From positions 10,382-74,381 of IMG/VR virus record IMGVR_UViG_3300021255_001482: DNA of 64,000 nucleotides; one strand, 5' to 3'. This document shows positions 42,215 through 42,345 of this stretch, piece by piece. Position numbers and translations under genes: made by a program. Numbering within the stretch: position 1 is the stretch's first letter; each line of letters begins with the position of its first letter. The notes beneath the pieces were generated by a model. The model was not told the DNA's origin, searched no databases, and worked only from the letters and a program-made list of their open reading frames with translations. This DNA is from a virus (taxonomy: Duplodnaviria; Heunggongvirae; Uroviricota; Caudoviricetes).

Positions 42215-42345
42215 GCCCCGGTGGCGGAATAGGCAGACGCAGCGGACTTACGTGGGCCCAGTGGCTTGTTGGAGAGCAGCACTCCTTCCCACGACCAAAA
42301 TCCGCTATCCGTGAGGGTGTACGGGTTCAAGTCCCGTCTGGGGCA
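42215..42345 (+). tRNA. Interrupted type-II tRNA. Removing about 47 nt from the anticodon loop gives tRNA-Leu (TAA, loop CTTAAAA).
   Basis: Acceptor GCCCCGG/CTGGGGC, D-arm GCG-GAATAGGCAGA-CGC, anticodon stem GCGGA/TCCGC, 15-nt variable arm, T-arm ACGGG-TTCAAGT-CCCGT, A73, CCA. The insert forms the hairpin CGTGGG...CCCACG. Confidence 0.45.

Follow-up and report, generated by a model that had tools for sequence, protein, structure and literature searches.

Introduction

The introns of bacterial and phage tRNA genes are thought to be essentially all self-splicing group I elements, and tRNA splicing by proteins is held to be a trait of archaea and eukaryotes. The closest described systems to the locus analysed here are the tRNA introns of the Lak megaphages, which were called "enigmatic", do not belong to group I and were given no mechanism; their presence varies between strains, their sequence is highly conserved, and one of them was noted as a possible tRNA (Devoto et al., Nat Microbiol 2019; PMC6784885). 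The Lak papers are the only precedent found in a literature search for a described mechanism of such introns. The present analysis concerns a 47-nt insert at positions 42251-42297 (+) in the anticodon loop of a tRNA-Leu(UAA) gene, carried by a 64,000-nt stretch of phage DNA (Caudoviricetes; IMG/VR record IMGVR_UViG_3300021255_001482, positions 10,382 to 74,381), hereafter called the window. Judged by its layout and its ends, this intron is a compact, flush-ended variant of the phenomenon that has been seen, and left unexplained, in Lak.

Nested tRNA-like inserts have been confirmed in the tRNA-Thr(UGU) and tRNA-Asn(GUU) genes of the Prevotella phage Lak-A1 (MK250016.1), where the two interrupted loci lie on the minus strand at 46831-47017 (L144) and 4983-5147 (L145). 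Both introns have a common leader, composed of xUACA, a short hairpin and an A-rich stretch ending in AUUAAA. The Lak introns resemble those of the window and its relatives in their location in the anticodon loop of a phage tRNA, in the nested tRNA-like element and in their strain-variable presence, and a homologue of the RNA ligase discussed below is also encoded. They differ in the hairpin leader of about 30 nt and in their end, which falls right after the discriminator base, without CCA. In contrast, the introns described here run flush from position +1 to the CCA of the tRNA-like element and are often cut down to a minihelix of 44-50 nt.

The group I intron of cyanobacterial and plastid tRNA-Leu(UAA) lies at the 34/35 site, that is, in the anticodon loop of the same tRNA species and at one of the two sites compatible with the present insertion. 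However, that intron splices itself, exceeds 200 nt in length, is built around a P3-P9 core and ends in G, and no sign of homology to it has been seen. A preliminary description of the locus, made from the DNA letters and their open reading frames, had assigned the insert to the same position as this intron. The site is ambiguous here and is 34/35 or 35/36 in relatives, which makes the link weak, and the two intron types have no sequence or structural features in common. The accompanying remark that the insert, at 47 nt, is far too small for self-splicing stands.

Archaeal and eukaryal tRNA introns are likewise small, non-catalytic and located in the anticodon loop, and they are removed by an endonuclease together with a ligase (RtcB or Trl1). 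They are inserted at 37/38, are recognised through a bulge-helix-bulge and yield cyclic phosphate and 5'-OH ends, whereas the site here is 34/35 or 35/36 and the recognition element is apparently a tRNA mimic inside the intron. In MALAT1-mascRNA and in tRNA punctuation, an embedded tRNA-like fold is cut by RNase P at its 5' side and by RNase Z at its 3' side. This is the same excision logic as is proposed below for the intron, except that those systems involve cutting only, the flanks are not rejoined and the element does not lie inside a tRNA. Phage T4 Pnkp and Rnl1 reseal tRNA-Lys that has been cut by PrrC beside the wobble base, so that a phage ligase acts on an anticodon-loop break in a tRNA held by its own structure, as is proposed for the present locus. 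The T4 pathway deals with host-inflicted damage and employs an Rnl1-family ligase; at the present locus the break would be programmed by the intron and the ligase belongs to the Rnl2 family.

Anatomy of the interrupted tRNA-Leu(UAA) gene

The gene occupies 42215-42348 (+) and has been identified as a type-II tRNA with an anticodon loop of 54 nt (42247-42300), one more than the 53 nt counted in the preliminary description. Its layout is GCCCCGG-TG-GCG-GAATAGGCAGA-CGC-A-GCGGA-[54 nt]-TCCGC-TATCCGTGAGGGTGT-ACGGG-TTCAAGT-CCCGT-CTGGGGC-A-CCA. The acceptor stem (GCCCCGG/CTGGGGC) and the D stem of 3 bp (GCG/CGC, with GG in the loop) can be read directly from the sequence. They are accompanied by the anticodon stem (GCGGA, 42242-42246, with TCCGC, 42301-42305), a variable arm of 15 nt (TATCCGTGAGGGTGT) whose 4-bp stem co-varies in relatives, the T arm (ACGGG-TTCAAGT-CCCGT), A73 at 42345 and an encoded CCA at 42346-42348. 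The long variable arm, A73 and the 3-bp D stem are features typical of bacterial leucine tRNAs, and all of them are present. The 5' exon (42215..42250, +) comprises the 5' strand of the acceptor stem, the D arm, GCGGA and the loop bases CUUA, and the 3' exon (42298..42348, +) the loop bases AAA, TCCGC, the variable arm, the T arm, the 3' strand of the acceptor stem, A73 and CCA.

With the Rfam tRNA model (RF00005), the segment 42215-42345 scores 42.8 bits, above the gathering score of 29 (E = 9.7e-6 in a search of the whole window), and the alignment places a 50-nt insertion in the anticodon loop. ARAGORN detects the gene in intron mode only and misses it in its default mode. After deletion of 42251-42297, plain ARAGORN calls an 87-nt type-II tRNA-Leu(taa) with the loop CTTAAAA. 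The matches bear out the preliminary description of an intact type-II tRNA-Leu(UAA) with a 47-nt interruption, the removal of which leaves this loop. The splice sites that ARAGORN itself proposes (Val-tac i(40,54); Arg-tct i(37,74)) are misplaced and were not used. The window contains 31 tRNA genes, 29 ordinary and two interrupted; the second interrupted gene, tRNA-Ile(UAU) at 30747-30897 (+), had been noticed earlier and has the same kind of interruption.

Three further tRNAs of the window carry leucine anticodons (AAG, CAA and UAG, at 27997-28073, 42352-42428 and 42738-42814, all +). They are 77 nt long, type-I shaped and without a long variable arm, and the interrupted gene is the sole type-II leucine tRNA in the window. 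A type-I tRNA with a UAA anticodon occurs in the related contigs L121 and L126.

Architecture of the insert

The insert is built as a tRNA-like minihelix. The 5' strand of an acceptor-like stem, CGTGGGC (42251..42257, +), pairs with the 3' strand, TCCCACG (42287..42293, +), through 6 bp and a C.U mismatch. The linker CCAGTGGCTTGT (42258..42269, +) stands in place of the D arm, the anticodon arm and the variable region of a tRNA. It is followed by a T-arm-like hairpin, TGGAG-AGCAGCA-CTCCT (42270..42286, +), with a 7-nt loop, which abuts the 3' strand of the outer stem. The last four nucleotides of the intron, ACCA (42294..42297, +), are the equivalent of the discriminator base and CCA. The two helices have 6 and 4 bp, with C.U and U.U mismatches adjacent at their junction.

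In the preliminary description the insert was taken for a hairpin with flanking bases. Because its conserved bases are the hallmarks of a T arm, it is read here from comparative sequence analysis as an acceptor/T-arm minihelix with discriminator and CCA, in other words as a reduced nested tRNA. The stability of the hairpin does not reach significance (z = -0.55 to -1.07), and the case rests on the comparison with other sequences. Within the Leu insert itself, the stem shows a compensatory change from CGTGGG/CCCACG to CGTAGG/CCTACG in the contigs L005, L010, L011, L123 and L127.

A family of inserts with a common plan

Viral contigs were searched for the two strands of the anticodon stem separated by 30-60 nt, and 12 loci were found. 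In nine of them the interrupted gene is tRNA-Leu(UAA), with three distinct insert sequences, and interrupted tRNA-Gln(UUG) and tRNA-Lys(UUU) genes were also among the loci. Relatives reached through the ligase gene contain interrupted tRNA-Ile(UAU), tRNA-Glu(UUC) and tRNA-Asn(GUU) genes and an interrupted type-I tRNA with a UAA anticodon. The resulting set comprises 16 inserts of about ten sequence families in six tRNA species (Leu, Ile, Gln, Lys, Glu and Asn). The earlier remark that both interrupted tRNAs read A-ending codons is correct for the window, but it does not hold as a rule, since relatives are interrupted in tRNA-Asn(GUU).

All 16 inserts have the same plan: (i) a 7-bp stem that starts from the first intron base; (ii) a linker of 9-58 nt, which in L007 is a full tRNA body; (iii) a hairpin of 5 bp and a loop of 7 nt, directly next to the 3' strand of the 7-bp stem; (iv) a tail of exactly 4 nt with the sequence N-C-(C/A)-A. 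In an alignment whose register follows our own structural parse, the introns themselves having been found by flanking sequence or ARAGORN, 93.8% of the cells are paired (62% in shuffles). Double-sided changes are present in 11 of the 12 insert pairs, and all seven pairs of the outer stem co-vary across families. The covariation score of 0.91 compares with 0.28 in shuffles, none of 500 of which reached it, and with 0.11-0.17 when the partners are slid. In the T-like arm, the equivalents of G53 and C61 do not vary in any of the 16 inserts, that of C56 hardly varies, and that of position 57 is A throughout.

A strict rule-based detector that includes T-loop rules gave 34 matches in 1.81 Mb, compared with 1-5 in shuffles; the loose structural detector from which it was tightened had been useless, with 459 matches against 267. 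Several ARAGORN intron-mode calls in L122, L126, L133 and L134 turned out to be merely adjacent tRNAs.

The tRNA origin of the inserts is most apparent in their longer forms. On the minus strand of L007 (about 6996-6848), the anticodon loop of a tRNA-Lys(UUU) contains an entire tRNA-Asn(GUU) with GCCA after it, and this nested tRNA scores 57 bits with the Rfam model. The intron of the tRNA-Ile(UAU) gene of the window, which was called in ARAGORN intron mode and whose spliced form is tRNA-Ile(tat), spans 74 nt (30782-30855, +; CACGAAG...CTTCGTG plus ACCA) and is a degenerate full-length nested tRNA. Its end-to-end alignment with the Rfam tRNA model scores 17.8 bits, which is below the threshold, and it has retained a canonical TTCAAGT loop; in its L124 homologue the T arm is perfect. 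The inserts thus form a graded series, with the complete nested tRNA of L007 at one end, minihelices of 44-50 nt at the other and degenerate tRNAs of 74-93 nt, such as the Ile insert, in between. As far as sequence can tell, the inserts derive from tRNA. Uninterrupted Ile(tat) genes from distant loci were uninformative when aligned with the Ile exons.

Two observations were made on the outer tRNAs of this set. The tRNA-Lys of L007 has an unusual T loop, AGCAAAG, like the T-like loops of several minihelix introns. The interrupted tRNA-Ile(UAU) on the minus strand of L004 (4962-5097) has a variable arm of about 21 nt and a spliced length of 88 nt, which is unusual for Ile.

Exact boundaries and intron-less alleles

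The boundaries have been determined by comparison with alleles that lack the insert. A metagenome scan with the predicted spliced junction led to L169, an 18.7-kb contig that is syntenic with the 28-45 kb region of the window at 85-97% identity. Its tRNA-Leu(UAA) gene is insert-free, with exons identical to those of the window (87/87), and its tRNA-Ile(UAU) gene is likewise uninterrupted. The alignment breakpoints between the window and L169 are 42250|42297 for Leu and 30781|30856 for Ile. The Ile boundary is unambiguous; that of Leu slides by one A, so that 42250-42296 fits the sequence equally. Since an A stands beside both Leu junctions, 34/35 and 35/36 are indistinguishable from the sequence alone. 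The insertion after U34 given in the preliminary description is accordingly compatible with the sequence, but insertion at 35/36 is equally so, and the structural register common with relatives favours the latter; the Leu intron therefore probably lies at 35/36, i.e. at 42251-42297.

A further allele pair is provided by tRNA-Glu(UUC), which is uninterrupted in L048 and nearly identical there to the interrupted Glu genes of L122 and L127. The comparison of L048 with L122 defines the intron as CUUU|GTGAGAT...GTCTCGC-ACCA|CAA, with an unambiguous boundary. In each allele comparison the intron starts with base 1 of the 7-bp stem and stops with the final A of the tail, and its ends are the positions of the mature ends of a tRNA, +1 and the A of CCA. 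When that span was removed from 17 genes, canonical tRNAs were obtained in 17/17. Most of the tRNAs are interrupted at 34/35, but tRNA-Glu at 35/36. The distance to the inner stem is constant, and that to the outer anticodon stem is variable. Both the anatomy and the boundaries of the intron are regarded as established with high confidence.

Gene integrity, codon demand and distribution

Across the interrupted Leu genes, pairing in the cloverleaf of the exons amounts to 97.2%, and 17/24 pairs show compensatory changes, which indicates that the interrupted tRNA-Leu is not a pseudogene. In the window, which has 36% G+C, TTA is the commonest leucine codon (376/758) and ATA makes up a quarter of the isoleucine codons. 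According to ARAGORN, the sole copies of the Leu(UAA) and Ile(UAU) decoders in the window are the interrupted genes.

The preliminary description had reasoned that an uninterrupted gene in homologous phages, together with an insert present only here, would suggest an assembly artefact or a pseudogene. Uninterrupted genes do exist in homologous phages (L169 and L122), but the insert is not unique to the window: a search of related phage contigs, as had been proposed, found it in at least seven independent ones, and this recurrence excludes an assembly artefact. The presence of introns is sporadic among close relatives. The window has introns in Leu and Ile and none in Glu and Asn; L124 has them in Leu and Ile (Glu and Asn not determined); L122 has them in Glu and Asn and none in Leu (Ile not determined); L048 has one in Asn and none in Glu (Leu and Ile not determined); and L169 has one in Asn and none in Leu and Ile (Glu not determined). 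Such presence and absence, as read from the aligned alleles, is the pattern typical of introns and not of an artefact or a pseudogene.

The Leu intron of the window is 94-96% identical to those of L005, L010, L123 and L127, whereas outside the anticodon arm the tRNAs of the same copies are merely 60-70% identical to the tRNA-Leu of the window. The higher conservation of the intron than of its host tRNA points either to spread or conversion of a cassette of intron plus anticodon arm, or to an unusually strong constraint on the intron.

A scan of the genomes of 185,579 species in GTDB with the flanking pattern gave 52 matches, all of them chance matches or ordinary tRNAs and none interrupted. 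On this limited pattern test, the Leu intron type appears to occur in viral contigs only. In a megablast search of 41500-43500 against GenBank phages no match was found, and a distant blastn search with the tRNA-Leu returned just a 41-nt match to a T arm.

Proposed splicing route

Removal of the intron at the RNA level is considered likely. In the reading proposed here, the 47-nt insert (42251-42297) is an intron that belongs to a tRNA-derived class and is removed from the RNA by a full pathway of RNase P, a CCA-end nuclease and a sealing Rnl ligase, and a probability of about 0.5 is assigned to it. Bacterial RNase P has its classic minimal substrate in a 12-bp stack of acceptor and T stems that carries a T loop and a 3' CCA. 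This enzyme would recognise the minihelix and its CCA and cut the 5' junction, so that the outer 5' half ends in a 3'-OH. An endonuclease cutting directly after the encoded CCA would then free the minihelix and leave the 3' half with a 5'-phosphate; this cut could be made by an RNase Z of the Thermotoga type, by an RNase E-like enzyme or by an enzyme of the phage. The products of RNase P, RNase Z and RNase E have 3'-OH and 5'-phosphate ends, which are those joined by ATP-dependent RNA ligases. Cleavage directly after CCA has been described for the tRNase Z of T. maritima (PMC3161902) and for the RNase E of E. coli on proline tRNAs (PMC5291269).

The two halves would be kept together by the outer cloverleaf, and the phage Rnl2-family ligase (38049-38699) would seal the nick in the anticodon loop, giving CUUAAAA and hence tRNA-Leu(UAA). 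The predicted spliced junction is GGACUUA|AAAUCCGC, i.e. GCGGACUUA|AAAUCCGC. The restored tRNA would read the commonest leucine codon of the phage. The corresponding statement for the whole family, namely that each intron is a whole or reduced mature tRNA spliced by ordinary tRNA end-processing enzymes and an RNA-repair ligase, and thus a member of an uncharacterised class, is advanced more tentatively, at somewhat less than even odds.

The candidate sealing enzyme is a 216-aa ATP-dependent RNA ligase of the Rnl2 family, encoded at 38049..38699 (+) (PF09414, 6.6e-17; phrog_548, 3e-22); a phage RNA ligase had already been invoked in the preliminary description, and this gene is indeed present near the tRNA. 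Its translation contains motifs I, III, IV and V (KVDG, fitting KxDG; FGEGYG; EGVV; KIK). Matches to T4 Rnl2 in the PDB are weak, and the C-terminal domain is lacking. Homologues of the ligase, about 32% identical, are encoded in 15/15 records of the Lak megaphages, for which alone introns of this sort have been reported among phages.

The ligase gene closes a segment between two tRNA arrays (32733-38699, +) that encodes DUF5662, a phosphoesterase, DUF2828+DUF7788, cREC_REC and the ligase, and this RNA-repair-like cluster is kept in relatives. The cREC_REC (cyclic-phosphate-processing receiver) protein at 37462..37818 (+) (PF20274, 8.2e-17) adjoins the ligase, also in relatives, and is a possible member of an RNA-repair module. 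The calcineurin-like metallophosphoesterase at 33866..34531 (+) (phrog_547, 1.8e-48; PF12850, PF00149) is possibly an RNA end-healing enzyme. In a second phage clade (L004, L007-L009), the interrupted tRNAs are flanked by DUF2828 and SPFH homologues.

Several points weigh against the RNase P pathway. The 12-bp stack of the Leu intron in the window contains two adjacent mismatches, C.U and U.U, and some intron tails are ACAA instead of ACCA, which would weaken the contact between RNase P and CCA. In many bacteria CCA inhibits cleavage (B. subtilis-type RNase Z). In the Lak introns a leader of about 30 nt precedes the nested tRNA, and their 5' junction cannot be set by RNase P on its own. The cREC and phosphoesterase genes in the neighbourhood suggest a chemistry of cyclic phosphates, which products of RNase P and RNase Z would not need. 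Finally, the ligase family also occurs where no interrupted tRNA is present, both in Streptomyces phage Faust, together with a polynucleotide kinase, and in MT835544, and the ligase is therefore not a specific marker.

The coincidence of the intron ends with mature tRNA ends suggests an origin by mis-ligation. Speculatively, a mature tRNA with a 5'-phosphate and a CCA-3'-OH was joined by the phage repair ligase into an anticodon loop that had been cut by a defence nuclease; the chimera could then have been fixed through cDNA or recombination and have spread as a cassette of intron plus anticodon arm. The interrupted species (Lys, Glu, Gln, Leu-UAA, Ile-UAU and Asn) overlap the typical targets of anticodon nucleases.

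Alternative explanations

The hint of cyclic-phosphate chemistry given by the cREC and phosphoesterase genes makes a dedicated endonuclease with end healing the main rival of the RNase P pathway. A splicing system of the phage itself would recognise the minihelix and cut both junctions in place of RNase P and RNase Z; the ends may be 2',3'-cyclic phosphate and 5'-OH, in which case the phosphoesterase, the cREC protein and a kinase would heal them and the ligase would join them. Such a system would fit the conserved RNA-repair-like cluster among the tRNAs (32.7-38.7 kb), the DUF2828 and SPFH homologues beside the interrupted tRNAs of the L004, L007-L009 clade, and several adjoining ORFs without known function. 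It is nevertheless considered unlikely: no nuclease or polynucleotide kinase was recognised among the approximately 40 window ORFs scanned, DUF2828 also adjoins uninterrupted Leu genes, and ends flush with those of a mature tRNA are more simply attributed to tRNA end-processing enzymes. It is rather less probable that the minihelix or nested tRNA is the product and the outer tRNA its scaffold, the halves of which are never rejoined. The minihelix would then serve, for instance, as a decoy for tRNA-targeting defence nucleases or CCA-binding factors. The placing of an RNA in a tRNA anticodon loop for stability is an established method of synthetic biology, the intron is more conserved than the tRNA outside the anticodon arm, and the L007 insert is a complete, presumably functional tRNA-Asn. 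A mere scaffold, however, does not account for the exon bases, which in 17/17 genes make up a 7-nt loop that has U33, a purine in position 37 and a plausible anticodon, nor for sister phages in which the gene has identical exons and encodes an ordinary tRNA, nor for an interrupted gene that is the only decoder of the commonest leucine codon in the window.

A small selfish DNA insertion or a recombination scar that is never removed would leave a dead gene, as the sporadic presence among close relatives and the lack of a call by ARAGORN in standard mode could suggest. This is very unlikely, given that the cloverleaf is perfect and retains its compensatory changes and that interrupted copies gather no stem-breaking mutations; moreover, the same design recurs in six tRNA species, the insert itself has a strongly covarying structure, and filled and empty sites differ without target-site duplication or terminal inverted repeats reaching both ends. 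Excision by the RNA itself, as a self-cleaving or self-splicing ribozyme (a tiny group I-like, HDV-like/theta, twister-sister, pistol or hatchet element), is the most improbable of the explanations considered. Small ribozymes are common beside phage tRNAs, theta being an example (PMC10879173), and the helix order of the insert loosely recalls P1-P3 of an HDV-like ribozyme. On the other hand, no ribozyme family matches 42100-42460 at E values up to 10 or the window at gathering scores, conservation is confined to the two tRNA-like helices and the T-loop-like bases, the linkers of 9-58 nt have no common core, and the intron ends in A and not in the terminal G of group I.

Several known identities were tried and rejected. 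A group I intron is excluded by the length of 47 nt, the terminal A and the lack of a match to group I or any other intron family in the same Rfam searches. The known small ribozymes (hammerhead, twister, twister-sister, pistol, hatchet and HDV-like) gave no Rfam match, although a theta model may be outside Rfam. Theta ribozymes are HDV-like and sit at the 3' ends of tRNAs, not in anticodon loops (PMC10879173), where the present insert lies. A bulge-helix-bulge intron, which has its splice sites in two 3-nt bulges on either side of a 4-bp helix, was dismissed by inspection: there is no exon-intron helix, the 5' site falls where the intron's own 7-bp stem begins, and the 3' site is 4 nt past that stem. 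No EndA/Sen splicing endonuclease was found among the roughly 40 window ORFs scanned, the window being about a third of the genome. An IS or MITE transposon does not fit either, as the empty sites of L169 and L048 show no duplication when compared with filled ones, and the inverted repeat is internal, with the tail at one end.

Other features of the tRNA region

A full-length ROOL RNA (RF03087, 324 bits, model positions 1-574) is located at 43300-43893 (+), within the tRNA array and 1 kb downstream of the interrupted tRNA-Leu. A repeat of about 34 nt, TTGTGATATAATATTTATAGAAACAAGGAAAGGA, with an extended -10-like box and a Shine-Dalgarno-like end, occurs at 41736-41769 and 43259-43292 (+) and many times in relatives. 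The ROOL RNA is closely preceded by one copy; the other stands at the start of a 480-nt stretch before the interrupted tRNA-Leu that contains no plus-strand ORF of 50 aa or more. The repeat is probably a phage promoter with its leader.

The 31 tRNAs of the window (27825-48244) include no tRNA-Tyr, and TAT is heavily used (416 counted). Several pairs of tRNAs in the window are one base apart, so that the RNase P cut of the downstream tRNA nearly makes the CCA end of the upstream one. CUA-anticodon tRNAs, amber suppressors labelled 'Pyl' by ARAGORN, are present in L005 (9929-10016, +) and L011 (2031-2120, -) and hint at stop-codon recoding in part of the phage group; in the window, TAG is used in 1/23 ORF stop codons. 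An HNH/homing-endonuclease-like ORF (phrog_374, phrog_559) lies at 58373-59101 (+), between PhoH-like and nucleoside deoxyribosyltransferase genes, and no link between it and the tRNA introns was found.

Significance

If the proposed route is correct, RNase P, a CCA-end nuclease and an RNA-repair ligase would together constitute a bacterial splicing machine, and a third route of tRNA splicing would stand besides self-splicing and the bulge-helix-bulge endonuclease. The introns of the Lak megaphages would gain an explanation. Standard tRNA finders would be seen to under-count phage tRNAs, as in the window, where the sole decoders of UUA and AUA are missed. Phage RNA-repair ligases would gain a second role beyond the countering of anticodon nucleases, and the intron could act as a timer, certain tRNAs becoming usable only after expression of the phage ligase.

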